DNA of 64,000 nucleotides from Candidatus Aenigmatarchaeota archaeon. GTDB lineage: Archaea > Aenigmatarchaeota > Aenigmatarchaeia > PWEA01. Shown here one piece after another: positions 5,842 to 46,749 of this stretch. The position numbers and the translations under genes were made by a program. Numbering within the stretch: the first letter of the stretch is position 1; every line of letters starts with the position of its first letter. The stretch lies in NCBI GenBank assembly GCA_046539325.1, contig JBKHHD010000004.1:25352-89351 (forward strand), read 5' to 3'. The notes under the pieces are model-generated. The model did not search any database and was not told the origin of the DNA. It worked only from the letters and a program-made list of their open reading frames with translations.

Positions 5842-7113
5842 ATGACATCTTTGAAATTTTTAGGTGGTTGTAGAGAAGTTGGGAAGTCAGGAGTTCTATT
5901 AGACACAGGTGCTGAGAAGATACTCATGGACTACGGGATAAAGCTCAGTGACCCTGAGAGCGAGGACGGTATCGGAAGACCGGAGAAAGTTAATCTAAAT
6001 ATAGATGGAGTTCTACTGAGCCACTGTCATCTTGATCATTCCGGGCTTGTACCGCGCCTTTACAACAGAGGCTACGATGGAAGCGTGTACGCTACCGCTA
6101 CCACATTCGATCTCTCAAAAACTCTGTGGCAGGACTCTATAAAGATAGCAAAGATGGAAGGAAGACAACAGGACTTTATTGAGTCCGACATAGAAAAGCT
6201 GGTGAGAAACCAGAGAAGGGTGGCTGTAGGCCAGACGGTGCCGATAGGCAATTCAGAAGTCTCGGTTTTCGACGCCGGTCATGTACCAGGGAGTTCCTCT
6301 TTTCTTGTCGATACTGGCGAAGAGACAGTTCTATACACTGGTGATATGAACACGATTGATACAAGGCTTATGAAGGGAGCAGATCCGAACTATCCGGACG
6401 TAGACGTACTTGTAATGGAAAATACCTATGCTGACATAAACCACAGCCCGAGGAAAGAGCTGGAGAGGAAGTTCGCAGAAAAAGTCAAAGAAAGACTCGC
6501 CAAGGACGGTACTGTAATTGTACCTTCCTTCGCCATAGGCAGAAGCCAGGAGATGCTTCTCGTCTTAAAGGAAAATGGAATTGATGCGCCGATCTACCTG
6601 GATGGAATGGCAGTCGAAGCTACGAAGAAGATACTGAGATATCCAGAGTTCTTGAGATACCCCGACGAGCTAAAGGAGGCCTACCATGACGCAAAGATTC
6701 CCGAAGACGATGACGAGAGGAAGAGAGCGCTTGAAGGTCCCAGTGTTATAGTGACCACGGCAGGAATGCTAGGCGGTGGGCCTTTCGCCTATTACATAAA
6801 GGAGATCTACGACGAGGAGAACTGCTCGATTCTTATGACCGGCTATCAGGTAGAGGGGACTGCGGGACGAAAGCTTCTGGATACAGGGATCTACGAGCCT
6901 GAGAAGCAAGGACTGGACGTCAATTGTTACTACGAACTTTTTGACTTCTCTGCACATTGTGGAAGGAAGGAGCTTTTCGAGTACGTGGAAGCTGTAGACC
7001 CGGAGAAGGTAATTGCTATGCACGGTGAAGAGGCAGAAAACTTCATAGCTGATTTAAAGGAAAGAGGCTACGACGGTGTAGCTCCGGAGAACGGTGAAGA
7101 AGTAAAAATTTAG
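5842..7113 (+). CDS. beta-CASP metallo-beta-lactamase ribonuclease (aCPSF2-like, no KH domains)
   Basis: LGGCREVGKS, SHCHLDH, AGHVPGS, YTGD, GRSQE, TGYQ, FSAH, MHGE. Confidence 0.92.
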   Translation: MTSLKFLGGCREVGKSGVLLDTGAEKILMDYGIKLSDPESEDGIGRPEKVNLNIDGVLLSHCHLDHSGLVPRLYNRGYDGSVYATATTFDLSKTLWQDSIKIAKMEGRQQDFIESDIEKLVRNQRRVAVGQTVPIGNSEVSVFDAGHVPGSSSFLVDTGEETVLYTGDMNTIDTRLMKGADPNYPDVDVLVMENTYADINHSPRKELERKFAEKVKERLAKDGTVIVPSFAIGRSQEMLLVLKENGIDAPIYLDGMAVEATKKILRYPEFLRYPDELKEAYHDAKIPEDDDERKRALEGPSVIVTTAGMLGGGPFAYYIKEIYDEENCSILMTGYQVEGTAGRKLLDTGIYEPEKQGLDVNCYYELFDFSAHCGRKELFEYVEAVDPEKVIAMHGEEAENFIADLKERGYDGVAPENGEEVKI

Positions 7114-32045: not shown

Positions 32046-33056
32046 CTAAACTACTTTACCCAAGTAGAGGTTGTGTTTGCTTCTTAGGATTTCCACATCG
32101 ATCTTCTCTCCAATGGTAGTTTTCTCTCCGTTGAGAACTGTTATAGTTCTATGGTCTGAAACAGCCAGCTTCTGTCCAGGATTCCAGCCCTGTGCAAGCA
32201 CTTCAGCTTTGACCTTCTCACCCCTTCTAAAAACCTTAGGCAGGGCAAATCCTACCTTCTCTATGTTGAAGTCTTTGGGGCTTAACCTTAGCTTTATGCT
32301 GTACTTTTCTTCCAAAGACCTAAGCTTGTTGTGAAACTCCTTCCAGGATTTTTCACTGCAGCCGTCGACCTTCCTACCGTTTCTATGCTCTCTGTACTTC
32401 TGTATTCCCAGCGCAGGCCAGTTCTCTCCTGCGCCTATACCCTTCGCGTACTGTACAATCTCCTCAATATCTCCATCGTTCAGGCCGTCTATCCAGACAG
32501 GAGCTATGAGTAGGTCTATTTCGCTTTCGGCTATAGCTTCAGCGTTTTTCCTCACCTTGTTTAGATCGTAGCTACCGGTTCCTGCCATGAACTTCGCTCT
32601 TTCATCTTCCAGAGAGTTGATGGTCAGATTTATCCTGTCCAGTCCTGCTTCCTCCAGCTGATTTATCATCTCTTCGTCCAGAAGCATTCCGTTGGTCTGC
32701 ATGGACATAACCTCCACGTCCTCAAGCCTGGAAAATCTATCCACGAGCTCCACGATCTTTGGATAAAGAAGTGGCTCGCCGCAGCCGTCTATATGCATTT
32801 CTACATCATTGCTTTCCTTCCTCGAAGCCATAGCTCCCGCGTACTCGACCATGTAGTCCGGGGATACTTCATACCTCGCTTGTTTATTGCCTTCTGGACC
32901 TTCGTCCACGGAACAAAAGGGACAGAAGAGGTTACAGCCGGAGACAGGTCTTATCTGCAGCAAATTCGTGCCTCTGTCCACGACCCCAAAGGGAAGGGCT
33001 CCAGTCAGAGGAAGATCTACTTCTTCGCCAACCTTAACCAACTCTCTATCGTCCAT
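32046..33056 (-). CDS. radical SAM protein with C-terminal TRAM domain (COG2100-like)
   Basis: FGVVDRGTN, CNLFCPFCSVDEG, HIDG.GEP, QTNG. Confidence 0.9.
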   Translation of the reverse strand: MDDRELVKVGEEVDLPLTGALPFGVVDRGTNLLQIRPVSGCNLFCPFCSVDEGPEGNKQARYEVSPDYMVEYAGAMASRKESNDVEMHIDGCGEPLLYPKIVELVDRFSRLEDVEVMSMQTNGMLLDEEMINQLEEAGLDRINLTINSLEDERAKFMAGTGSYDLNKVRKNAEAIAESEIDLLIAPVWIDGLNDGDIEEIVQYAKGIGAGENWPALGIQKYREHRNGRKVDGCSEKSWKEFHNKLRSLEEKYSIKLRLSPKDFNIEKVGFALPKVFRRGEKVKAEVLAQGWNPGQKLAVSDHRTITVLNGEKTTIGEKIDVEILRSKHNLYLGKVV

Positions 33057-33137
33057 AGACCTAACTAAGCCTGTGAAATGATTTAAAGAAAGGGGTAACC
33101 GCGATCTATAAGTGTCTTGAGAAGAAACTATAATGTT

Positions 33138-34499
33138 ATGAATAAGCACGATCTTGTGATTGTGGGTTCAGGCTCAGGCCTACAGGTTGCGAGAGCCGGA
33201 GCTCAGAAGGGATTAGATGTAGCCGTAGTTGAAGAAAGCGCAATTGGTGGCACCTGTCTGAACAGAGGATGCATACCTTCTAAGATGTTAATACACAGAG
33301 CAAACGTCGCCGAAACGATAGAAGACTCTGAAAAGTTCGGTATAAGCTCAACCTTGGAGGATATAGACTTCCACGGAATAACTAAAGAGGTGAATGAAAG
33401 CGTGGACTCTGACTCCGAAGCTGTCAGACAAGGGATAAAGAGGTCAGGCATATACACGCTTTACGAGGACAGAGCTTCCTTTGTCGACGAAAGGACACTA
33501 AAGGTAGGGGATGAAAAGGTAAGGGGTGAAAAGATGGTTGTAGCTGCGGGTGCGAGACCGAGGATACCTACTATTGAAGGCTTGGACGAAGTAGATTATA
33601 TAACAAGCAAGGAGGCCTTGAAGCTCGAGGAAAGGCCCGAACACTTGGTGATTGTAGGCGGTGGATATATAGCAGCTGAGTTAGGACACTTTTTCGGCTC
33701 CATGGGATCAGACATAACCGTGCTGGAGGCAAACGAAACTTTGATTGGCGGGGAGGACAGAGAGGTTTCAAAGAAGTTCACGTCTGAGTTCTCGAAAAGG
33801 TACGAAGTCAAAACAAACACCAAGGTAAAGAATGTTTCACAGAAAAGAGATAGAAAAAAGGTAACTGGCGAGAAAAACGGTGAAACTGTGGAGGTTTCTG
33901 GTGATGAGCTGCTCATAGCCACCGGAAGAAGACCAAACAGCGATATACTTGATGTAGAGAAAGGAAACGTTGAAACGGATGAAAAGGGCTTCATCAAGGT
34001 TAACGACAAGCTTGAGACGACAGCCGAAAACACTTGGGCTCTTGGTGATATAGTAGGTGGAAAAATGTTGAAGCACGTTGCAAATCTCGAGGCAGAGTAT
34101 GTTACTATGAACGCGGTCATTGAACACGAACATAGCGTGAATTATACAGCTATTCCACATGCGATATTCTCCAGTCCTGAAGTTTCAGGTATAGGCAAAA
34201 CAGAAGAGGAGCTGGAAAAGGAGGGGAAGGAGTACCTCAAGGGAACCTTCAACTACGAGGACACGGGTTTTGGCTCAGCACTGAAGAGCAAGGGTTTTGC
34301 AAAGGCACTTGTAAGCCCAAAAAGCGGCGAAATACTTGGATGCCATATCATTGGCCCGAGAGCATCGATGCTTATACACGAAGTCTCTGTCTCTATGAGA
34401 AAAGGTTCCGGCAAAGCTGATGACATAATTAAAAGTATCCACGTGCATCCAGCTCTGAATGAAGTCGTTCAGAGAGCATTTGAATCCCTGGAATATTGA
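33138..34499 (+). CDS. dihydrolipoyl dehydrogenase-family pyridine nucleotide-disulfide oxidoreductase
   Basis: GSGSG, GGTCLNRGCIPSK, GGGYIAAE, ATGRRPN, HPALNE. Confidence 0.9.
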   Translation: MNKHDLVIVGSGSGLQVARAGAQKGLDVAVVEESAIGGTCLNRGCIPSKMLIHRANVAETIEDSEKFGISSTLEDIDFHGITKEVNESVDSDSEAVRQGIKRSGIYTLYEDRASFVDERTLKVGDEKVRGEKMVVAAGARPRIPTIEGLDEVDYITSKEALKLEERPEHLVIVGGGYIAAELGHFFGSMGSDITVLEANETLIGGEDREVSKKFTSEFSKRYEVKTNTKVKNVSQKRDRKKVTGEKNGETVEVSGDELLIATGRRPNSDILDVEKGNVETDEKGFIKVNDKLETTAENTWALGDIVGGKMLKHVANLEAEYVTMNAVIEHEHSVNYTAIPHAIFSSPEVSGIGKTEEELEKEGKEYLKGTFNYEDTGFGSALKSKGFAKALVSPKSGEILGCHIIGPRASMLIHEVSVSMRKGSGKADDIIKSIHVHPALNEVVQRAFESLEY

Positions 34500-35571: not shown

Positions 35572-36834
35572 TCACATGCGGATTTTCTTTAGAATATCCT
35601 CTGCTGTGTCCTGAGAAATCCTGTCCTCCTCTGCCATCCTTTCAGCCACTTTGTCCACCTCTTTGCCCTCGGCTCCGGCTTGCTTGGCTATGTTCTTTGC
35701 ATGTAGTTTCATGTGACCTTCCTGTATTCCTTCCGTAACAAGAGCTCGAAGTGCAGCGAAGTTCTGCAAAAGGCCTACGGAAGCCATAACTTGAGCAAGT
35801 TCCTCTGAAGAGTCCACATCCAAGATCTTAAGCGAAAGCTCCGCAGTCGGATGGAGGGAAGTTATACCACCCACTGTTCCGACCGCAACGGGAACCTCTA
35901 TACTGCCTCTGAGCTTTTCGCCTTCAATCCACCACTTTGTCACCGGACCGTATCCATTTTTAGCTGCATAGGCATGAACCCCAGTTTCGAGAGCACGGGA
36001 GTCGTTGCCCGTGGCTGTACAGACAGCGTCCATGCCGTTCATTACACCCTTGTTATGTGTTGCGGCACGATAAGGATCCGCCACCGCAAATTCGTACGCG
36101 CCAACGATGGCTTCTGCGACTTGTCTTCCGCCCATTTTTTCCTTCTGCAGAGTTTCGAAGCCAAAGGAAACCTCGGCCTCCGCAAGACGTCTATCGGAGA
36201 GATTGGAAAGTATCCTCAGATTAGTTTTGGTATTAGTTAAATCCTCTATCGTAGGAGCAATGGTCTCACACATCGTGTTTACAGCGTTAGCTCCCATAGC
36301 GTCTCTTACATCCACGATAACATGAACAACGGCCGTTCCTTCCTTGTCTATATCTCTGACTTCGATATCTCTGGCACCACCACCCAGCTTGACCAGTGTC
36401 TCGTCAGCAGCGTTTGCTTCCTTGATCAGCCTCTCTTCGTTTTCCATTATAGTTTTACGGAACTCTTCGAACTTATCTACGCCGTTGACTTGAATCTGTC
36501 CTATCATCTCTGGTTTAGTCGTTTCTGCTTCTACGCCTCCGTTCTCTCTTGCAAGCTTTGCAGCGTAGGAACAGGCCGCCACCACGGACGTTTCCTCCAC
36601 GGCCATGGGAACCAGGTAGTCCTTCCCGTTTACCTTAAGGTTCGTTGCGATTCCTAACGGGAGCTCGTAGTTAGAAACCACGTTTTCTATCATATCATCT
36701 GCGTTTTTTTCACTCAGAGCTCCAAAGTTCTCAAGTAGCTCCATATCTTCGTCTGTAAGCCCGGCCCTGTCCTTGAGAACTCTTCTCCTTTCTTTCGGGT
36801 CAAGTTTATAGAAGCCGGATATCTTGCTGTCCAT
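35572..36834 (-). CDS. mvaA: hydroxymethylglutaryl-CoA reductase, class II
   Basis: MIENV, PMAVEETSVVAA, DAMGAN, RILSNL, THNKG.MNG, EGIQEGHMKLH. Confidence 0.95.
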   Translation of the reverse strand: MDSKISGFYKLDPKERRRVLKDRAGLTDEDMELLENFGALSEKNADDMIENVVSNYELPLGIATNLKVNGKDYLVPMAVEETSVVAACSYAAKLARENGGVEAETTKPEMIGQIQVNGVDKFEEFRKTIMENEERLIKEANAADETLVKLGGGARDIEVRDIDKEGTAVVHVIVDVRDAMGANAVNTMCETIAPTIEDLTNTKTNLRILSNLSDRRLAEAEVSFGFETLQKEKMGGRQVAEAIVGAYEFAVADPYRAATHNKGVMNGMDAVCTATGNDSRALETGVHAYAAKNGYGPVTKWWIEGEKLRGSIEVPVAVGTVGGITSLHPTAELSLKILDVDSSEELAQVMASVGLLQNFAALRALVTEGIQEGHMKLHAKNIAKQAGAEGKEVDKVAERMAEEDRISQDTAEDILKKIRM

Positions 36835-38585: not shown

Positions 38586-39077
38586 ATGACTGATCCCAGA
38601 GAGGAGTTCAAGGAGCTCCTGGCGGAAACACACAGAATGAGGGGGATAGATGAGCTTTCCTCGCAATTAATCGCGGAGCTTTTTATAGAGTCCGGAAAAC
38701 TCTCACTGAAGGAGCTAGCCGAAAGAACAGGCTACAGTCTATCTGCCGTATCCAGCGAGATGAAAAATCTGGGGAACAGTAGCTTCATCAAACGAACCAA
38801 GAAACCGGGGTCCAAGAAGATCTACTTCCATATAGAAAAAAGCCTTATGAAGAACTTCCTTGAAGGAATATCAGAAAAGCATAAAAAGATAATGGATATG
38901 CTGGAGCAGAAGCTCCCAAGAATAATTGACAAGTACGAAAACAAAGGAGGCGGAGGCAGCAACGAAGAAAAGGAGATAGTTGAGAACTACTACAGAGAAA
39001 TACAGGCCATGGATAAAATATTCGAAGAGTTGAGGGGAAAAATCGAAAAAAGGAAAAGGGAGTTGGAAGATGAGTGA
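38586..39077 (+). CDS. GbsR/MarR-type transcriptional regulator
   Basis: LSLKELAERTGYSLSAVS..MK.L, PGSKKIYF. Confidence 0.85.
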   Translation: MTDPREEFKELLAETHRMRGIDELSSQLIAELFIESGKLSLKELAERTGYSLSAVSSEMKNLGNSSFIKRTKKPGSKKIYFHIEKSLMKNFLEGISEKHKKIMDMLEQKLPRIIDKYENKGGGGSNEEKEIVENYYREIQAMDKIFEELRGKIEKRKRELEDE

Positions 39078-39753
39078 CAACGAAAACATAGTTATAGAAC
39101 TGGAGGATGTACACAAGGTCTATCAGATGGGTGAGACGAAGGTACGTGCGCTCAGAGGCTCGTCTTTGGAGGTCAGAAGAGGCGAGTTCCTGTCCATAGA
39201 AGGTCCTTCGGGCTCAGGGAAGTCAACGCTTATGAATATGATAGGCTGTCTGGACGTACCGACTTCAGGAAAGGTGCACCTGGAGAAGTGGGACATACAG
39301 AAACTAACGGAGTCGGACCTGGCACAGATACGCGGAAAGAAGATAGGCTTCGTATTCCAGACCTTCAACCTGATAAAGAACCTAACTGCACTGGAGAACG
39401 TGGCGATGCCTATGATGTTCCAGGGAATATCCAAGGAGAAAAGGCTCAAAAGGGCGAAAAATCTGCTGGTGGAGATGGGCCTCGGCGAGAGACTCAATCA
39501 CAAGCCTGCGGAGCTTTCAGGGGGACAGCAGCAGAGGGTCGCGATCGCAAGGGCGCTTGCAAACGATCCCGATGTACTGCTTGCAGACGAGCCAACAGGA
39601 AACCTCGACAGCAAGACAGGCAAAAAGGTACTGGAAAAACTCAAGGATTTAAATGAAAGGGAAGGTAAAACTATCGTGATGGTTACCCATGATCCAAACG
39701 CGGCTGAGTACGCCGAAAGGATCGTGGAGATAAAGGACGGTGTTGTGAAATGA
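39070..39753 (+). CDS. ABC transporter ATP-binding protein (LolD/MacB type)
   Basis: GPSGSGKST, GFVFQ.FNL, LSGGQQQR, LADEPTGNLD. Confidence 0.96.
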   Translation: MSDNENIVIELEDVHKVYQMGETKVRALRGSSLEVRRGEFLSIEGPSGSGKSTLMNMIGCLDVPTSGKVHLEKWDIQKLTESDLAQIRGKKIGFVFQTFNLIKNLTALENVAMPMMFQGISKEKRLKRAKNLLVEMGLGERLNHKPAELSGGQQQRVAIARALANDPDVLLADEPTGNLDSKTGKKVLEKLKDLNEREGKTIVMVTHDPNAAEYAERIVEIKDGVVK

Positions 39754-41069
39754 GTAAGTATATGAAACCGGCGTTTCTCCTCACAGTCCTTGCTCTGTCC
39801 CTTTCACTTTTTGTAACTATACCGGAGGCCGAGGCCTCGACAGGTAGGATGTCACAGCTCGAAGTAGTCTACAGGAAGTCTGAACCAGATCCATTGAGAA
39901 CCGGGGAGTACGCGGATGTCTGGGTTAAGGTAAAGAATACCGGGGACACAAAGGCCGAGGACATATCGCTAGAGTTCGTTCCGGAATTTCCTTTTTCTCT
40001 GGATCCGGACAAAGAAGCCGTAAAGGAACTCGGTGATATGAATCCCGGTGTTGAGTATCATGCGCACTACAAGATACGCGTCGACGAGAACGCAGTTCCC
40101 GGAGAAAACGACCTCAAGTTCAAGACAAAAAGCGATATAGCTGAGATCACAAAGACCCTGCCCGTACAAGTGAGAAGTAGAGAATCCGTGCTTTCCGTGG
40201 AAAGAGTAGGGGTCGAAGGTGGGAAAATACCCCCGAGCAAGACACGAAATGTAACTTTAAAACTGAAGAACCGCGCGGACACATATCTCAGGAATATAGA
40301 CTCGTCCCTTGGGCTGAGACCTGTCAGTAGTGAGACAGCAGAGATGGAGGAGGAGGCCGAGATGCTGGGCACAGAGGAATACCAGACTGCGGAGGAGATA
40401 CCGCTCATCACTGTAGGAGAAACCACGGAAAAAAGGATAGGCAAGATAGCTCCTGGAGAGACAAAGGAGGTTACATTCCCTGTACGCGCCGAGTCAGACG
40501 CGACCGAAGAGGCGTACAAGGTCCCCGTGGAAATGAGGTACGAGGACGAAATGGGAAACACGTGGCAGAAGATAGAATTCACAGGGATAACCGTTGGCGG
40601 AGAACCGGTAGTCGAGACGGGGATAGCCGATATAGACGGCTACCCTGTATCCGATACCTCAACGGAAGTCTCGCTAAGACTTGTGAACCGTGGTCTTTCC
40701 GAGGCGAAGTTTCTACAGGCAGAACTTCTACCGCATGAGTCATACCAGGTCGTGGGAGAACCCGACGTCTACGTAGGCCATATGCAGCCCGACGACTTCG
40801 ACTCACCGTCCTTTACGGTTTACATGGAGCCCGATCACGAAAGGGTGGAAATTCCCGTTGAACTGAACTACAGGGACTCGGAAGGAAACGAAGTGACGGA
40901 GGAACAGACCGTAAGCTTCCGCACCTATACAAGCGGAGAGATAAGTAGCTTACGTGTCGAGGAAGGTGGGAACGCACTTTATTACATAGTAATAATTCTA
41001 GTAATAATCGGAGCCGTCTACCTTTACAGGAGAAGAAAGAAAAGCAAGGAGAAGCTCCTGGAGGAGTAA
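39750..41069 (+). CDS. COG1361 S-layer-domain protein
   Basis: Signal peptide, Ig-like CARDB-type repeats (V.V.N.G), C-terminal TM and basic tail. Confidence 0.85.
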   Translation: MSKYMKPAFLLTVLALSLSLFVTIPEAEASTGRMSQLEVVYRKSEPDPLRTGEYADVWVKVKNTGDTKAEDISLEFVPEFPFSLDPDKEAVKELGDMNPGVEYHAHYKIRVDENAVPGENDLKFKTKSDIAEITKTLPVQVRSRESVLSVERVGVEGGKIPPSKTRNVTLKLKNRADTYLRNIDSSLGLRPVSSETAEMEEEAEMLGTEEYQTAEEIPLITVGETTEKRIGKIAPGETKEVTFPVRAESDATEEAYKVPVEMRYEDEMGNTWQKIEFTGITVGGEPVVETGIADIDGYPVSDTSTEVSLRLVNRGLSEAKFLQAELLPHESYQVVGEPDVYVGHMQPDDFDSPSFTVYMEPDHERVEIPVELNYRDSEGNEVTEEQTVSFRTYTSGEISSLRVEEGGNALYYIVIILVIIGAVYLYRRRKKSKEKLLEE

Positions 41070-41076
41070 AGTTCCT

Positions 41077-42276
41077 ATGCTTCTTGATGAGTTTGTGCTT
41101 GCAGTCAGGAACATAAAGGAGAAGGGCGCACGGTCCTGGCTGACGATAATAGGGATATTCATAGGGATAGCTGCCGTGGTCGCGCTGATCTCTCTTACCC
41201 AGGGCCTGAGCCAGTCCGTTGAAGCGGAGTTCGAGCAGGCAGGAACGGACACGATAACTGTAATGGCAGGGAGGAGTTCGGGAACGGGCGGAATGGGAAT
41301 GGTCGGCGCAGTGGGGTCTTACATAAGTGAAGACAACGCCGACACTATAAGGAACGTGAGGGGTGTGGAAAACGCCGAACCTATGAGCATGGAGTTAGGT
41401 CAGATTAAGTACAGAGGAGATACGCAAAGGGTTCCCGTCGTAGGCGTAGAACCTGCTCTCTTTGAAATTTTCCCACAGTACTCCGTTGAGAAGGGCCGTG
41501 AACTGAGGGACAACGACAGGTTCAGCGCAGCCATAGGACCGAAACTCGGCGACGACGTTTTCGATGATGAAATAGACCTCAGAAACAACTTAGATATAGA
41601 GGGAAACAGGGTAAGGGTTGTCGGAATCCTTGAATCAATGGGCAACCCAAGCGATGACAGAAGTGTGACCATACCCCTGGATACTGCGCAGGACATATTT
41701 GATGCCGAAGGACAGATCTCCATGGTATACGTAAGTGTATACGACTCATACGAGCCGTCCGAGGTGGCAGAAGAGATAGAGGAAGAACTAGAGGACGAAA
41801 GGGGCGAAAGGGACTTCTCCGTTCAGACAATGGAACAGGTTCTCGACGCTGTAAACAACATCCTCTCAATGGTTCAGGCCCTCTTCGTGGGAGTTGCAGC
41901 CATTTCTCTTTTTGTGGGAGGTGTAGGGATTATGAGCACGATGTATACCTCAGTTCTTGAGAAAACAAGGGATATAGGTATAATGAAGGCCGTCGGAGCC
42001 AGAAACTCCGACGTTATGAAGATATTTCTCTTTGAGTCAGGACTGCTCGGCTTAACAGGTGGAGTTCTAGGCGTGATAATAGGACTTTCGATAGCAAAAG
42101 GCGCTGAATACGTGATCCAAGAGTTCTACGGACTTGGAATGCTGGAAATAGCTGTAACCCCGGAGCTGATAATAGGCGCTTTGGGTTTCTCCTTTATAGT
42201 TGGTACGCTTTCAGGTGTTCTCCCCGCGAGAAGCGCAGCGCAACTAGACCCTGTGGACGCTTTGCGGTCAGAGTGA
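41077..42276 (+). CDS. ABC transporter permease (MacB/FtsX type)
   Basis: RSWLTIIGIFIGIAAVV, EKTRDIGIMKAVGA, PARSAAQLDPVDALR. Confidence 0.95.
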   Translation: MLLDEFVLAVRNIKEKGARSWLTIIGIFIGIAAVVALISLTQGLSQSVEAEFEQAGTDTITVMAGRSSGTGGMGMVGAVGSYISEDNADTIRNVRGVENAEPMSMELGQIKYRGDTQRVPVVGVEPALFEIFPQYSVEKGRELRDNDRFSAAIGPKLGDDVFDDEIDLRNNLDIEGNRVRVVGILESMGNPSDDRSVTIPLDTAQDIFDAEGQISMVYVSVYDSYEPSEVAEEIEEELEDERGERDFSVQTMEQVLDAVNNILSMVQALFVGVAAISLFVGGVGIMSTMYTSVLEKTRDIGIMKAVGARNSDVMKIFLFESGLLGLTGGVLGVIIGLSIAKGAEYVIQEFYGLGMLEIAVTPELIIGALGFSFIVGTLSGVLPARSAAQLDPVDALRSE

Positions 42277-42335
42277 TCCTTTAGGAAAGTTAAATTCTGC
42301 TCCTTTGTTCAGTTTCCTCTTCAGTGTTGTAGTTC

Positions 42336-42611
42336 TTAATCACTATCTTTTGACTTTGATACGGCTGTCTTGAGGTCCTTGCCGTCAAAACCTATGACCT
42401 CAACATCCTTTGAATCTATCCATTCCTTGAACTTCTTATCAACATCATCAATCTGAATTTCTGAGAGTGTTTCTTCCAGGTCTTTGAGACTGTCCTCGGG
42501 ATGTATAAAGAAATCACCCCGGACGTCGATCTCCTTGACTACATTGTCCTTTACCTCTACGTCTATTTTCAGCATCTTTCCATCGGGCACTTTAAAATCC
42601 ACATGCTTCAT
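42336..42611 (-). CDS. lipoate-protein ligase accessory C-terminal subunit (LplB)
   Basis: KVPDGK..., GDFFIHPED...LE..L. Confidence 0.85.
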   Translation of the reverse strand: MKHVDFKVPDGKMLKIDVEVKDNVVKEIDVRGDFFIHPEDSLKDLEETLSEIQIDDVDKKFKEWIDSKDVEVIGFDGKDLKTAVSKSKDSD

Positions 42612-42617
42612 AATCTA

Positions 42618-43391
42618 TTACCTCATAAAGTTCCAGTCCTTTGTTCCGTATTTCTCCTTGCGAAGCTCCTTGGCTTTTTCCTCCTCGTAATCAGTGAGGT
42701 CACCGCTTTGAAGGCTCTGCCCGAACTCCTCGCTGAAAGCCTGGCTCAAGGCTTCTTTTACCTCTTTCATGGACAGCCCCGGCTTCCTTTCCTTCAACGT
42801 CGTAACTCTTTCTTCAAGACCAGACGTCACCTTGTCCTTTGACTTCTCCTCGGAAATTTTAAGATACTTTACCATCTTTTCAGGCTCAAAGTCAAGAAGT
42901 AAAGTTCCGTGTTGAAGGAGAACTCCGTTTTTCCTGGTCTGTGCGTTACCCGAGATCTTTCGTCCTTCGACAACTACGTCATTTATTCCGGAATGTTCGG
43001 CCTCAATTCCGATTTTTTTCAGAGCCCTGATAATACACTCACTGATCTTTCTGTAGGACTCCTTGATATCACTGGGAATTCCCTTTAACTCCTCTGGGGC
43101 AATTATACTGTAGTTGATCTCACCCTTCGGATCTTTGTAGACAGCTCCACCACCAGTCATCCTTCGGAAAATCTCCACATCGTCCTCCCGGCACTTCTCA
43201 ACGTCCACCTCCTCTTTGACGGACTGGAAGTAACCGATGGCCACAGCTGGTTCACTCCACCTATAGAACCTAAGTGTGGACTTCACTTCCCCTTCCGATA
43301 CGGCCTGAAGTATAGCTTCGTCCGTGGCCATCTTCCGGTAGGAATTCTCGACGGGGTCCGACTCTATCAGTCTGAAGGTCATTTTCTCCAA
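42618..43391 (-). CDS. lplA: lipoate-protein ligase A catalytic subunit
   Basis: MATDEA, LRFYRW, RRMTGGGAVY, ND...GRKISGNAQ, HGTLL. Confidence 0.95.
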   Translation of the reverse strand: MEKMTFRLIESDPVENSYRKMATDEAILQAVSEGEVKSTLRFYRWSEPAVAIGYFQSVKEEVDVEKCREDDVEIFRRMTGGGAVYKDPKGEINYSIIAPEELKGIPSDIKESYRKISECIIRALKKIGIEAEHSGINDVVVEGRKISGNAQTRKNGVLLQHGTLLLDFEPEKMVKYLKISEEKSKDKVTSGLEERVTTLKERKPGLSMKEVKEALSQAFSEEFGQSLQSGDLTDYEEEKAKELRKEKYGTKDWNFMR

Positions 43392-43393
43392 CT

Positions 43394-44152
43394 CTATCCT
43401 TCCCTTGAGATCAGTCCGGTCAGTGGGTGGTCGGGATTGGGTTCGGAAACCAGCATCTGGTTTACTGCAGGCGGATAGGCAAGGTCCGTTTCCTCTACTC
43501 TGTCAAGAGCTTTTTCCAGGTCTTTAGTTGTCAGACCGATCCATAGCTCATCATCCTGTGAACCAGCGATACTTCTAGCACCGCCGCAAGGAACGGTCAA
43601 CCACGGAACTCCTTCCTCCGCGACCGGAACGATAACTTCACAGGCTGCATGCCCGTTGACCCTCGGCGACGTTTTCTGTCCTGTCTTATCGAAGACGCCT
43701 AGTAGTAGTAAATAAACCTGGGAGGAATCGGTTACCATGACTACAGAATCAGGATGCATTCCCAGATCGTCGAACTCTCTCAGTGGTGCCATCACCGCAG
43801 CCTCGTAGTCTCCAACAGGCAGAGTCTCCGTCTTCTCCATCAGCTCCTCGAACCTCTCTTCTGTGTAGCCAAAGCCATTGACCCATCTTTCCTTCAGGTC
43901 GTCGGGAATTTCTTCAAAGCCGAGGACCCTGGAACCTATCACGCAGCCGCCCATGTTTTCCATGGAAACACCGCGCGTTTTTTCGTATACTGCAACCTCC
44001 TTCAGAACCTGGCACAGACCCAGGTCCTTGTCCGGAAACATCACTTTGTTCCCCACCTCCTCTTTATTCTCAAGAAGTTTGACACCGATAGGAACGCCTT
44101 TGCCTTTGATTAGATCGTCGTACCTTTTCTCCAAGTTTTCGTACTTTGTCAT
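43394..44152 (-). CDS. DUF169 family protein
   Basis: PIGVK, LCQ, GC.IG...LG, P..V, AC, PCGGAR...DDEL pattern. Confidence 0.85.
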   Translation of the reverse strand: MTKYENLEKRYDDLIKGKGVPIGVKLLENKEEVGNKVMFPDKDLGLCQVLKEVAVYEKTRGVSMENMGGCVIGSRVLGFEEIPDDLKERWVNGFGYTEERFEELMEKTETLPVGDYEAAVMAPLREFDDLGMHPDSVVMVTDSSQVYLLLLGVFDKTGQKTSPRVNGHAACEVIVPVAEEGVPWLTVPCGGARSIAGSQDDELWIGLTTKDLEKALDRVEETDLAYPPAVNQMLVSEPNPDHPLTGLISREG

Positions 44153-44161
44153 AAGATCACC

Positions 44162-44551
44162 TCACATATTTTTTTCGACCCATTCCTCCGCTTCTTCTGC
44201 GTCCATAAGTTCCTCCAGTTCGGAGGGATCGGACAGCTTAACTTTGACGATCCAGCTGCCGTACGGGTCTTCGTTTATTTTTTCGGGGTTGTCGTAAAGG
44301 TCATTGTTGACCTCGATTATTTTCCCGGAGACTGGACTTGATAGATGTCCGGACCATTTCATGGCTTCCAGGGAAGTGTAGTTGTCTCCCTTTTCGACTT
44401 CTTCACCTTCCTCGGGCAGGTCTATGAACACGAACCTCTTGACCCTGTCAGCGGCCGGCTGGATAATCCCCAGCTTCGCTTCTCCGTTCTCTACTTCTAC
44501 CCAGGAGTAATCCTGGTTGTATTTCAGCCTTTCCGGCAGTTTTTCACTCAT
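44162..44551 (-). CDS. gcvH: glycine cleavage system H-like lipoyl carrier protein
   Basis: W, G, FIDLP, LEAMK lipoyl-lysine site, SPVSG, NEDPYGSW. Confidence 0.9.
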   Translation of the reverse strand: MSEKLPERLKYNQDYSWVEVENGEAKLGIIQPAADRVKRFVFIDLPEEGEEVEKGDNYTSLEAMKWSGHLSSPVSGKIIEVNNDLYDNPEKINEDPYGSWIVKVKLSDPSELEELMDAEEAEEWVEKNM

Positions 44552-45968
44552 CTTGATCACCTTCTTTATCTTTGTCTTCGGAACCTTTAGTTTTTTGGTA
44601 AATCAACTTTATAACCAAGGCAGCAAGTACAGCACCGCCGAACACGTAGATCGTTCCTGCTATGCTCTCCATAAGATCAGGAGCGAAGAGGAGGCTCATC
44701 GCGAGTGCAAACATGATCGTTCCTCCGATTAGCTTGAGGAACCTCCCTTGCTTCTTGCCCAGCTTTGCTTTGTCCATCGTAACAACCGCGGAGAAGAAGA
44801 TGACAAGTTCTATGCTGAGGTAGATGAAGAGATACAGTCCTAAGAGAGCGGCAAATGTCAGGGAAAACATCTCCAGCCCTTTACTTGCTATTATATTGGT
44901 CCACATAACAGGAAATCCTGCTGTGCAGGGCAGTTCGACAAGAACGATGCCCAGGGCCATACCTGCAGTGGCGGCTATCATTGCTGGAACGTTTCCTTCT
45001 TTCTTCAGGACCTCTCTCATCTTTCCAATTATCTTCGGTTTATATCTATCGGGAATCGTAAAGGAAACACCCTTCTTGTACCAGAAGTAATCCTTGATGT
45101 TGACTACTGCAAAGGTCAGTGCCAGGGCAGCCACTGCTATACGGATCCATAAGAGGTGCCCTGTATAGGAAAACACGTTCAGAAGGCCGATGATAAAGAG
45201 TCCATAGGCCGCTGTTGTGGTCAGCAAGAACGTCAAACCAACGGCAACTACCTTTTTCCTGGAGCCGGAGTAGATTACCAGACCGAGTAAAAAGGTTATG
45301 ACCCACAATGAGCAGGGATTGAAACCATCTACAAATGCAATAAGACTCGTTAGGACGAAAAGTGATGTATTTTTTGAACTTATCTCACCGAAAACGGGTA
45401 GTTCAACTGTTCCCTCGGTCTCGTTAAACCCGGAATAATCACCTGGGACAGACTCTTCCTTCGAACTGTCCTCGTCTTCAGGTGGAGTCTGAGTTTCTTC
45501 ATCATCGGTACCTGTTTGAGACTTCAGTTTTTCTCCTGGATCCACACAGGTCTCAGTCTCCAGACATTCATCGATCTTTTCTTCCATCTCTGTGCCCATG
45601 GATTCAGAATAACCGACCCAGACCTCGTCGTCTATAAAGGTGGCGGGAACTCCCGAAACCGACCTTCCGTAGGCCTCAGCAACCTCCTGGAACAGCTCCT
45701 GGTTGCTTTGATTATGGTACACTTCGAACATCTTCACCTCAAGTTCCGGGTGCTCTCTTTCAAGATCTTCAAGAAACGATTTCTCCTCGGCACAGTGTGG
45801 ACAACCGTCTCCCCAGAAGAAGTAAACCGTTACCTCATTATCCTCTGTGAGGCTGGTATCTGTAATATTATCTGTTTGTGAAGCCTCGGCAGCTGAAACT
45901 GGAGGAATTAAAAACACGGCCAATACAGCCAAAACCAGTACACCTGCTATTTTACCCCCGAAATCCAT
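44544..45968 (-). CDS. extracytoplasmic thioredoxin domain fused to a CcdA/DsbD-like membrane domain
   Basis: Signal peptide, GCPHC, cis-Pro GVP, membrane DGFNPC and ELPCTAG; its stop overlaps the gcvH start. Confidence 0.85.
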   Translation of the reverse strand: MDFGGKIAGVLVLAVLAVFLIPPVSAAEASQTDNITDTSLTEDNEVTVYFFWGDGCPHCAEEKSFLEDLEREHPELEVKMFEVYHNQSNQELFQEVAEAYGRSVSGVPATFIDDEVWVGYSESMGTEMEEKIDECLETETCVDPGEKLKSQTGTDDEETQTPPEDEDSSKEESVPGDYSGFNETEGTVELPVFGEISSKNTSLFVLTSLIAFVDGFNPCSLWVITFLLGLVIYSGSRKKVVAVGLTFLLTTTAAYGLFIIGLLNVFSYTGHLLWIRIAVAALALTFAVVNIKDYFWYKKGVSFTIPDRYKPKIIGKMREVLKKEGNVPAMIAATAGMALGIVLVELPCTAGFPVMWTNIIASKGLEMFSLTFAALLGLYLFIYLSIELVIFFSAVVTMDKAKLGKKQGRFLKLIGGTIMFALAMSLLFAPDLMESIAGTIYVFGGAVLAALVIKLIYQKTKGSEDKDKEGDQDE

Positions 45969-46010
45969 ATTCATCACCCTTCTTTTGTGGAGTAACACCT
46001 TATAAACGTT

Positions 46011-46029
46011 TGTTTCAAAAAGTGAAATA
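46011..46029. promoter_or_regulatory. imperfect inverted repeat upstream of the operon TATA box
   Basis: TGTTTCA-AAAAG-TGAAATA beside TTTATAAG (minus strand). Confidence 0.4.
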
Positions 46030-46046
46030 GCTTCAAACCTGCATCT

Positions 46047-46550
46047 TCAAGAGCCCACGTAAAGGTCCACAAAGGGTTCCTTCAATCTAATCAGGTTGCT
46101 CATCCCCGAGTCCTCTTTGCTGATTATCCCCCTGTCTTCCAGTTTGGACAGCTTTCTAGAAACCTTTACCTTGTCTACTCCCGTCTCCTTGACTATCCTG
46201 CTCTGCTGCATCGCTCCATCCTCGTCGATAAGCTCTTCGACTATCTTCCTCTCGTCGTTGCCCAAAAACTTCAATGTCTCCCTCGCCTCCTCGCTCAACT
46301 CCTCCTTCTCCTCCTTGAAGGCTCCTGAGAGGTAGTAGTAGGTGGCCATTCCGACAAGGACGCCCAGAGACGTGAGAATAGCCAGGATCCAGTTTATCGG
46401 CAATGTACACGCACAGGCCGATGGATCCATGTAGTTCTGGTGTAGGTAGTAGTAGAAGAAGCTGACGGCTATCACGAACCCGACGATGATCAGAACTACT
46501 GACAGAAACCTCCTGAAAAACTTCTTCCTGTCCTTACCGTTCATAGGCAA
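46047..46550 (-). CDS. membrane-anchored wHTH regulator (2 TM with CxC loop)
   Basis: TM-PSACACTLP-TM, then DERKIV...QSRIV..TG.DKVKVSRKL..LE.RG. Confidence 0.85.
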   Translation of the reverse strand: MPMNGKDRKKFFRRFLSVVLIIVGFVIAVSFFYYYLHQNYMDPSACACTLPINWILAILTSLGVLVGMATYYYLSGAFKEEKEELSEEARETLKFLGNDERKIVEELIDEDGAMQQSRIVKETGVDKVKVSRKLSKLEDRGIISKEDSGMSNLIRLKEPFVDLYVGS

Positions 46551-46595
46551 TCACTTGTTGTTTTAATTTCTGCTTGTTCGTTTTAATAGTTTATC

Positions 46596-46699
46596 GATGA
46601 CATCAAAGAGTCTATGCCGCAGTCAGGTATCTTCCCACCGCTCGGTAGGTCGATGGCCCTGGCGTTAAACCCGTCGGTTTCGTAAAAGACCTCACATCC
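46596..46699 (-). ncRNA. candidate structured small RNA or leader
   Basis: GC-rich island in an AT-rich spacer; nested helices GAGGTCT/AGACTC, CAGG/CCTG, ATC/GAT, CCTACC-GAGC-GGTGGG; strand uncertain. Confidence 0.3.
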
Positions 46700-46749
46700 T
46701 TTTCTGAGGGAAGTTCAGTTTTAAAAACAAAGGGCTACCATATTGCCCT

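Follow-up and report, generated by a model that had tools for sequence, protein, structure and literature searches.

Gene organization of the locus

The 64,000-nucleotide (nt) stretch analyzed here (the window, to whose positions all coordinates refer; residue numbers are given per protein) lies on contig JBKHHD010000004.1 of the genome of a Candidatus Aenigmatarchaeota archaeon, a tiny, salt-loving organism. At 42336-46550, on the minus strand, the window contains six close-packed open reading frames (ORFs) that encode a membrane-tethered regulator, a thioredoxin-membrane fusion protein (hereafter TrxMem), a GcvH-type lipoyl carrier, a DUF169 protein, and the two subunits of a split lipoate-protein ligase, LplA and LplB. 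This gene set and its tight packing, first proposed in a sequence-only reading of the window, are borne out by the ORF coordinates, the intergenic gaps and the matches to Pfam and NCBIfam models. The regulator (46047-46550; 167 amino acids, aa) has two transmembrane (TM) helices and a winged helix-turn-helix (wHTH) domain of the DUF7343 family (PF24034, 4.5e-15). TrxMem (44544-45998; 484 aa), recognized by its cysteine motifs and an AlphaFold2 (AF2) model, combines an exported thioredoxin (Trx) domain carrying a CPHC motif with a membrane domain carrying two cysteines. Downstream are the genes for GcvH (44162-44560; PF01597, 1.6e-36; NF002270, 129.9 bits, cut-off 117), the DUF169 protein (43394-44152; PF02596, 1.4e-29), LplA, the large catalytic subunit (42618-43391; PF21948, 1.1e-58), and LplB, the small subunit (42336-42611; equivalog model NF053749, 67.9 bits, cut-off 65).

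The end of TrxMem and the beginning of gcvH share 17 nt if the annotated GTG start of gcvH is used and 8 nt with the alternative ATG at 44551, which yields an N-terminus (MSEKLPE) that agrees with the homologues. The remaining gaps are 9 nt (GcvH/DUF169), 2 nt (DUF169/LplA) and 6 nt (LplA/LplB). Between the regulator stop (46047) and the TrxMem ATG codons, the minus strand reads TTTATAA (46000-46006), an archaeal TATA-like box that, from the consensus and its spacing to the start, we take to be the promoter of a five-gene operon extending from TrxMem to LplB; this suggests that these five genes are transcribed from a promoter of their own. With the box read as a promoter, the GTG at 45998 becomes unlikely as the TrxMem start, and the true start is probably the ATG at 45974 or 45968.

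An orphan lipoyl carrier and its ligase

Lipoate is, by the textbook account, bound to five enzyme complexes. In the host genome (715,179 bp in 10 contigs, 91% complete, the completeness at which all genome-wide negative results reported here hold), GcvH is the sole match to the GCV_H family and the sole match to Biotin_lipoyl. It scores 113.6 bits against TIGR00527, just below the cut-off of 115.85. The lipoyl lysine, K68, lies within the motif EA(M/V/L)KWSGHL, and K68, W69, S70, G71 and H72 are invariant in all 20 GcvH sequences of the module. No match was found in the host genome to the P and T proteins of glycine cleavage (GDC-P, that is, GcvP, and GCV_T, that is, GcvT), nor to the E2 catalytic domain of 2-oxoacid dehydrogenases (PF00198); E1 subunits were not searched. 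Among 14 other genomes that carry the module, GDC-P and E2 were detected in none (GCV_T was not searched there). Thus, the absence of such partners, previously noted for the window alone, extends to the whole genome and, for GcvP and E2, to the other carriers. Glycine cleavage and a lipoate relay to E2 were accordingly rejected, given that P, T and E2 were not found although an H protein is present.

The assembly, being 91% complete in 10 contigs, together with the E1 subunits left out of the search, leaves some room for an ordinary glycine cleavage system or 2-oxoacid dehydrogenase whose partners were lost to incomplete assembly, with the adjacency of TrxMem being accidental. However, P, T and E2 were not found here, GDC-P and E2 were not found in any of the 14 other carriers, and TrxMem and GcvH are neighbours in at least 17 loci elsewhere (see below), so that we consider this explanation extremely improbable and close to refuted. 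Most likely, GcvH does not belong to glycine cleavage, and the operon forms a thiol-redox module complete in itself and centred on an orphan lipoyl-GcvH.

The ligase itself is ordinary. As in other split archaeal LplA/LplB pairs (NF053749/NF053750), the large catalytic subunit and the small subunit corresponding to the C-terminal domain are encoded side by side, and only the sole substrate, GcvH, is unusual. LplA scores 199 bits against PF21948 (cut-off 27), but remains under the cut-off of the strict models NF053750 (238.7 bits, cut-off 480) and TIGR00545 (204 bits). LplA and LplB close the module in loci L011, L013, L014, L015, L024, L026, L030, L071, L084, L097, L098, L101 and L158. The host genome contains no LipA homologue (tblastn, E<=0.01), so that lipoate must be scavenged.

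Architecture of TrxMem

TrxMem consists of an N-terminal anchor, an exported Trx fold (residues 56-162), a disordered linker and a membrane domain of seven helices. Its cysteines include the CPHC motif at 66-69 (C66 and C69), C229 in DGFNPCS, C358 in ELPCTAGFP, and a second pair, C145 and C151; the CPHC cysteines, C229 and C358 are invariant in all 28 aligned family members. In the AF2 model (mean predicted local distance difference test score, pLDDT, 78.1), membrane helices 1 and 4 are kinked at the two PC motifs: the helices modelled at 213-242 and 337-372 break there, and each is followed by two more helices in a 3+3 arrangement. A conserved, lysine-rich loop (306-336) would be cytoplasmic if the Trx domain is outside.

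This layout resembles that of DsbD, CcdA and ScsB, in which electrons pass from cytoplasmic thioredoxin reductase (TrxR) and thioredoxin to two membrane cysteines and on to periplasmic Trx-fold domains, as laid out in the available text of PMC8945050. The two invariant PC-motif cysteines in membrane helices 1 and 4, the 3+3 layout of the model, the Trx-fold domain outside and the further exported thioredoxins encoded nearby are all shared; the small thioredoxins of the module carry signal or lipobox-like N-termini. TrxMem differs from these proteins in having no Pfam DsbD match, in its seventh helix and conserved lysine-rich cytoplasmic loop, in a gene-linked cytoplasmic partner that is lipoyl-GcvH rather than thioredoxin, and in the lack of a cytochrome c biogenesis context. 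A fold search with the whole model matched thioredoxins only (Trx folds in the PDB at E of about 0.016), and Pfam gave weak Trx/Grx matches, all under the cut-off. The name 'CcdA' on some homologues in JGI, and Atlas neighbours that carry SfLAP, DsbD_TM or DsbD_2 (scores 0.86-0.90), are leads only. As modelled, TrxMem shares the DsbD/CcdA design, whereas homology is not demonstrated.

Conservation of the TrxMem-GcvH pairing

The TrxMem family is large, with 2802 matches at E<=1e-3 among 8000 scored. For the survey of gene neighbourhoods, the best 80 of 586 relatives in species genomes were fetched with their flanks. TrxMem is directly followed by GcvH in 10 of these best 80 loci, which come from seven bacterial and three archaeal genomes; the pair was found in three other Aenigmatarchaeota genomes (L011, L012 and L014) and on four metagenome contigs (L098, L101, L106 and L158). 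In total, the adjacency occurs in at least 17 loci beyond the window. In a set of 26 relatives including the host, a GCV_H match above the cut-off was present in four (the host G000, G175, G155 and G046). The linkage of TrxMem, GcvH and LplAB, whose absence elsewhere had been named in the sequence-only reading as grounds for abandoning the idea, is therefore found in other archaeal as well as bacterial genomes. Because it recurs across domains of life, the adjacency of TrxMem and GcvH is far beyond chance.

Two TrxMem subfamilies that are about 35% identical both show the GcvH pairing. In a quick tree, the 14 linked rows all fall outside a 58-row clade of unlinked proteins from Chloroflexota, Deinococcota and Actinomycetota, and the linkage label changes five times, compared with a mean of 13.1 after shuffling (none of 500 shuffles was as low). 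Within the lysine-rich loop, K309 is lysine in all 11 linked rows and in about 10% of the 70 unlinked rows, where glutamate predominates; the divergent subfamily likewise has lysine there in each of its four rows (three of them linked, and the unlinked L016). As a pointer to the GcvH pairing this pattern is confounded by phylogeny and makes a weak lead.

The ten carrier genomes are all of 0.4-1.3 Mb; seven encode the bacterial ribosomal protein L20 and lack the archaeal S28e, and three show the reverse. Five of the genomes that were looked at individually (G208, G209, G211, G212 and G217, with loci L024, L027, L030, L031 and L085) are of 0.7-1.0 Mb, encode L20 without S28e, and look like small genomes of the candidate phyla radiation (CPR) type. 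Around the pair, the ten linked loci encode LplA/LplB, LipA, either a CoADR-like reductase or TusA-TsuA-DsrE/H, small thioredoxins and, twice, DUF169. Thus, in G175 the order is regulator, TrxMem, GcvH, small exported Trx, DGC, TusA, TsuA, DsrE, DsrE, DsrH, LipA, two unknowns, LplA, LplB, ArsR and DsbD_2, and in G172 it is TrxMem, GcvH, DUF169, CoADR-like reductase, LipA, an unknown, LplA and LplB. The G155 locus runs from the regulator through TrxMem, GcvH and a small Trx to the contig end, and that of G046, cut before GcvH, continues with DUF169, LplA and LplB. The constant core consists of TrxMem, GcvH and LplAB, and the genes for cofactor synthesis, electron or sulfur exchange and extra surface thioredoxins vary. 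The module in the window is the variant with DUF169, with E3 in trans and without LipA.

In seven other genomes of the same genus, DNA corresponding to either flank of the module is present, but the stretch at approximately 42300-46700 has no match; hence, the module is an indel in this species, which at the DNA level is most simply read as an acquisition, a recent gain within the genus.

Two exported proteins without a family assignment (145 aa with the motif CTSGCGG, and 213 aa) recur upstream of LplA or after LplB in variants of the module (L011, 3175-4255; L014, 3625-4062; L024, L026 and L158) and are absent from the host genome. Near unlinked TrxMem genes (L018, L021, L045 and others among L017-L096), the only recurrent neighbours are ArsR (seven loci) and the ArsP_1 permease (five loci), which points to another setting for the family, of an arsenic type.

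Candidate reductases

Outside the operon, 8 kb away, lies a plus-strand gene (33117-34499, ATG at 33138) for an E3-like class I flavoprotein disulfide reductase, the only Pyr_redox_dim protein in the genome. Its best NCBIfam models are all dihydrolipoyl dehydrogenases, with scores below the cut-offs (NF004946, 586.6 bits, cut-off 634; TIGR01350, 378.3 bits, cut-off 408.8). It contains the motifs GGTCLNRGC and, at the C-terminus, HPALNE; we take CLNRGC and HPALNE to be the redox disulfide and the C-terminal His-Glu pair of E3, respectively. A divergent radical-SAM gene (32046-33149, minus strand), whose start overlaps that of the E3-like gene, has MoaA as its best NCBIfam match (79.5 bits, cut-off 284) and is neither LipA- nor LipS-like.

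In relatives, a CoADR-like pyridine nucleotide-disulfide reductase (PNDR) is encoded inside the module (L014, L026, L027, L030, L071, L098, L100 and L106) or near it (L158); it has a single active-site cysteine, in SPCALPY. A reductase with Pyr_redox_dim is present in 7 of the 14 module genomes other than the host.

A proposed thiol relay across the membrane

From the gene identities, the orphan status of GcvH, the gene linkage across domains and the cysteine architecture, we infer, as the likeliest and most economical reading, a lipoyl-protein counterpart of the DsbD relay in which electrons would flow from NADH through a flavoprotein to lipoyl-GcvH, and from there through the membrane cysteines to a surface thioredoxin; we rate this reading as evenly poised between right and wrong. 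LplA and LplB would lipoylate GcvH at K68, using lipoate that has been scavenged. The lipoyl disulfide would be reduced at the expense of NAD(P)H by a flavoprotein, the resident E3-like enzyme in this archaeon and the in-module CoADR-like reductase in many relatives. Dihydrolipoyl-GcvH would then contact TrxMem directly and hand two electrons to C229/C358, whereupon TrxMem would reduce its own exported CPHC domain, which would act on surface or external disulfides. The two-TM wHTH protein may sense the external thiol state through its CxC loop and control the operon from the TATA box behind its own gene, and DUF169 would be a cysteine-rich accessory in the slot beside GcvH, possibly an adapter. 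The relay would be thermodynamically sensible if lipoamide is at -0.29 V, the E0' given in the consulted part of PMC6067878.

Two known systems come closest with regard to the use of a protein-bound lipoyl group, and both offer a precedent for the proposed mechanism. The Lpd-DlaT-AhpD-AhpC relay of Mycobacterium tuberculosis is a lipoyl-dependent thiol peroxidase, and the cysteine-based Ohr/OsmC proteins are reduced by lipoylated proteins (Cussiol 2010, as cited in the available text of PMC8945050). In both, as in the proposed relay, protein-bound dihydrolipoamide recycled by a flavoprotein and NADH reduces a cysteine-based protein; however, their carrier is the E2 of a working dehydrogenase, whereas here it is an orphan GcvH with a presumed membrane acceptor. 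Membership in the AhpD relay was rejected: the CMD domain (PF02627) is absent from the host and present in 1 of 15 module genomes, on a contig of G213 outside the module (AhpC was not searched genome-wide). Our literature searches found no published description of such a lipoyl-GcvH/TrxMem module.

In tiny symbiont-type archaea and bacteria in which no GcvP or E2 was found, a lipoyl carrier, its ligase and often the synthase are kept, with the carrier gene joined to that of a putative membrane thiol relay. If the proposed relay is real, cells would have a novel means, linked to NADH, of powering thiol chemistry at their surface; the retention of lipoate genes in genome-reduced DPANN and CPR organisms would be explained, and a large unclassified family of Trx-membrane proteins, together with one branch of DUF169, would gain a first clue to function. 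Since the components are small and soluble or expressible in Escherichia coli, the idea is directly testable.

Evidence against the relay and alternative explanations

Several observations, in addition to the distribution of DUF169 described in the next section, weigh against this relay. The first concern the membrane domain. The sequence-only reading had called TrxMem a Trx-CcdA fusion; the exported CPHC domain and the membrane cysteines in the NPC and LPC motifs were recovered, whereas membership in CcdA was not shown by either Pfam or hhalign. The membrane part alone had no match to DsbD-family models (PF02683, PF13386) even at E<=10, no DsbD_TM match at E<=0.1 was found in the whole genome, and hhalign of the membrane domain with four DsbD_2 sequences (L011, L015, L033 and L085) was not significant (E 0.25, probability 0.2%).

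The second concern the electron donor. The E3-like gene is present in G147, G058 and G203, which have no detectable GcvH, and went undetected in G046, G155 and G175, which carry the module; it is not co-distributed with the module. As to the earlier proposal that E3 reduces GcvH, the presence of the E3-like gene at 33138 and the in-module reductases of relatives fit it, but the distribution of E3 does not track the module. Seven of the 14 other module genomes lack any Pyr_redox_dim protein. Six of these seven (G175, G208, G210, G211, G214 and G216) carry TusA-TsuA-DsrE/H, which points to sulfur chemistry rather than NADH, and G046 has neither.

These six genomes bring in an explanation by sulfane-sulfur handling. 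Lipoyl-GcvH would be an LbpA-type carrier or a reductant of persulfide or thiosulfate, with sulfide released for assimilation or detoxification; TrxMem and the surface thioredoxins would handle external polysulfide or thiol-bound sulfur, and DUF169 would be a sulfur-transfer protein. TusA, a TsuA/YeeE-type thiosulfate transporter (NF052577, 319.7 bits, cut-off 400), two DsrE and DsrH are encoded between GcvH and LipA in such variants (TusA/DsrE loci: L011, L024, L038, L076, L084 and L085), the in-module reductase of other variants is CoADR-like with its single cysteine, and the gene of one unlinked DUF169 relative is flanked by those for a class-V aminotransferase and ThiI. The sHdr-LbpA system sets a precedent for lipoyl carriers in sulfur metabolism (PMC6067878 and PMC11094781, in the parts available), and the corresponding portions of PMC6067878 (Cao 2018), PMC10332631 (Tanabe 2023) and PMC11094781 (Tanabe 2024) describe there a GcvH-like carrier that works apart from glycine cleavage and whose own LplA-type ligase is encoded in the same cluster, with a linkage to E3 in archaea. 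The module resembles this system in its lipoyl carrier outside glycine cleavage, its ligase and, in some variants, TusA and DsrE, but the relatives of the module encode LipA instead of LipS1/S2, and their constant partner is the membrane Trx fusion. Explaining the host by sulfur handling is made difficult by the lack of any TusA, TsuA, DsrE, DsrH or DGC homologue in its genome (tblastn, E<=0.01), by the occurrence of the CCG (HdrB-type) domain in only 1 of 15 module genomes (G213, on a contig outside the module), and by the inconstancy of the sulfur relay next to the constant TrxMem-GcvH-LplAB core; we therefore regard it as unlikely. Membership of the window module in the sHdr-LbpA system was rejected, as the host lacks both the CCG domain and the sulfur transferases.

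The third group of observations concerns the link between TrxMem and GcvH itself. There is no GcvH nearby in 70 of the best 80 TrxMem loci, mostly from Anaerolineae, Bipolaricaulota and Trueperaceae, so the TrxMem family works without GcvH, and the host encodes two thioredoxins and two TrxR-like genes, a possible ordinary donor for TrxMem. Both facts would suit an arrangement in which GcvH and LplAB serve in the cytoplasm as a lipoate reserve or as an antioxidant buffer, TrxMem draws its electrons from ordinary thioredoxin, and the operon is shared only because both respond to oxidative or thiol stress. A parallel is offered by Staphylococcus aureus, where, according to the accessible text of PMC12440151, GcvH-L with its own ligase protects from oxidants. 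The GcvH-L/LplA2/SirTM system resembles the module in that an additional H-protein, served by a ligase of its own, is dedicated to redox stress and not to glycine breakdown, but GcvH-L donates lipoate to E2 (PMC12440151, same portion), and no E2 that could take over stored lipoate was found in the module genomes. No SirTM or macrodomain gene was present in the module loci examined. Mere co-regulation is hard to reconcile with a translationally coupled TrxMem-GcvH order kept in two subfamilies of about 35% identity and in both domains of life, and with dedicated reductases inside the module; we consider it improbable, to about the same degree as sulfur handling.

Finally, CPHC is a motif of the DsbA type, as fitting for an oxidant as for a reductant. 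Electrons could then run in reverse: the CPHC domain would oxidize exported cysteines, and the electrons would move inward through C229/C358 to lipoyl-GcvH, from which E3 or PNDR would pass them to NAD+ or, where TusA and DsrE are encoded, sulfane sulfur would take them up, making the module a quinone-free stand-in for DsbA/DsbB. E3 normally oxidizes dihydrolipoamide, and the PNDR and sulfur-relay sets resemble alternative sinks. Such flow would nevertheless be uphill, from a DsbA-like couple, presumably far more positive, to lipoamide, and the module encodes no terminal oxidant stronger than NAD+. The potential of lipoamide is about -0.29 V in the part of PMC6067878 available. We hold reverse flow to be quite improbable. 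An elaboration, which we would likewise give little credence, is a quinone-free disulfide-forming machine for ultra-small cells without a respiratory chain, with NAD+ or imported sulfane sulfur or thiosulfate as sinks and DUF169 as a new-fold, four-cysteine adapter between lipoyl-GcvH and its partner.

The DUF169 protein

The four spaced cysteines previously noted in DUF169 are confirmed by an alignment of 24 sequences, in which C47, C171 and C189 are invariant and C70 occurs in at least 90%; H168, E172 and DDE200-202 are conserved as well. The AF2 model is of good quality by its scores (pLDDT 87.6; predicted template-modelling score, pTM, 0.86). A comparison with the PDB gave no sequence relative and a best fold match at E 0.044 with a template-modelling score of 0.30, too poor to count as a solved relative of the fold. 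Longer, fused forms of DUF169 were looked for and none was found, which is weak evidence, and the prediction of a GcvH-DUF169 complex scored 0.00, which is no verdict on contact.

DUF169 is rare, being present in 6 of 201 sampled genomes of the phylum and in none of six other genomes of the same genus. A metagenome scan with the DUF169 alignment retrieved 67 loci; GcvH adjoins DUF169 in seven of these, all encoding the closest relatives (at least 53% identity), and relatives at 45-50% identity occur in unrelated contexts. With the GcvH linkage limited to the closest subclade, the role in lipoate or thiol chemistry that had been assigned to DUF169 is unsupported, which is a further point against the relay as drawn. 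The literature mentioning DUF169, in the text that was accessible, gave no function.

In the L014 locus (6232-6989; G172:C9), DUF169 is split into a 220-aa frame and a 51-aa tail and is labelled 'partial' by NCBI; a frameshift, pseudogene formation or faulty assembly could account for the split. The neighbours of unlinked DUF169 genes (L117, L148, L121, L132 and L109) include a tungsten-type AFOR in two loci, a LarA-like protein in two, and a class-V aminotransferase with ThiI in one, which possibly points to a connection with sulfur-containing cofactors. Deriving a function from the neighbours of unlinked TrxMem or DUF169 was given up, as these are heterogeneous and indicate no clear function.

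The regulator and neighbouring genes

The upstream two-TM wHTH protein with CAC in its inter-TM loop, as described from the sequence, is borne out by the DUF7343 match and by the loop itself, which reads SACAC and provides an external CxC. This CxC is retained in six of seven module-type homologues, the window copy included. Homologues of the regulator are encoded upstream of TrxMem in L011, L012, L026, L071 and L016, and upstream of a small Trx in L015. A tblastn search with the regulator detected a second membrane-tethered wHTH paralogue in the window, at approximately 16193, whose N-terminal extracellular domain is large and which lacks the CxC loop.

Genes for a MacB-type ABC ATPase, a CARDB/NEW3 surface protein and an FtsX permease (39070-42276, plus strand) end beside the module. 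An FtsX gene also adjoins the regulator homologue in G155 and G175 (L015, 10273-10704; L016, 4822-6000), so that this neighbourhood may be conserved. Farther away, at 35572-36834 on the minus strand, the window encodes an HMG-CoA reductase of the NAD-type, 'degradative' class (TIGR00532, 427 bits, cut-off 259.95) and not of the usual archaeal NADPH class.

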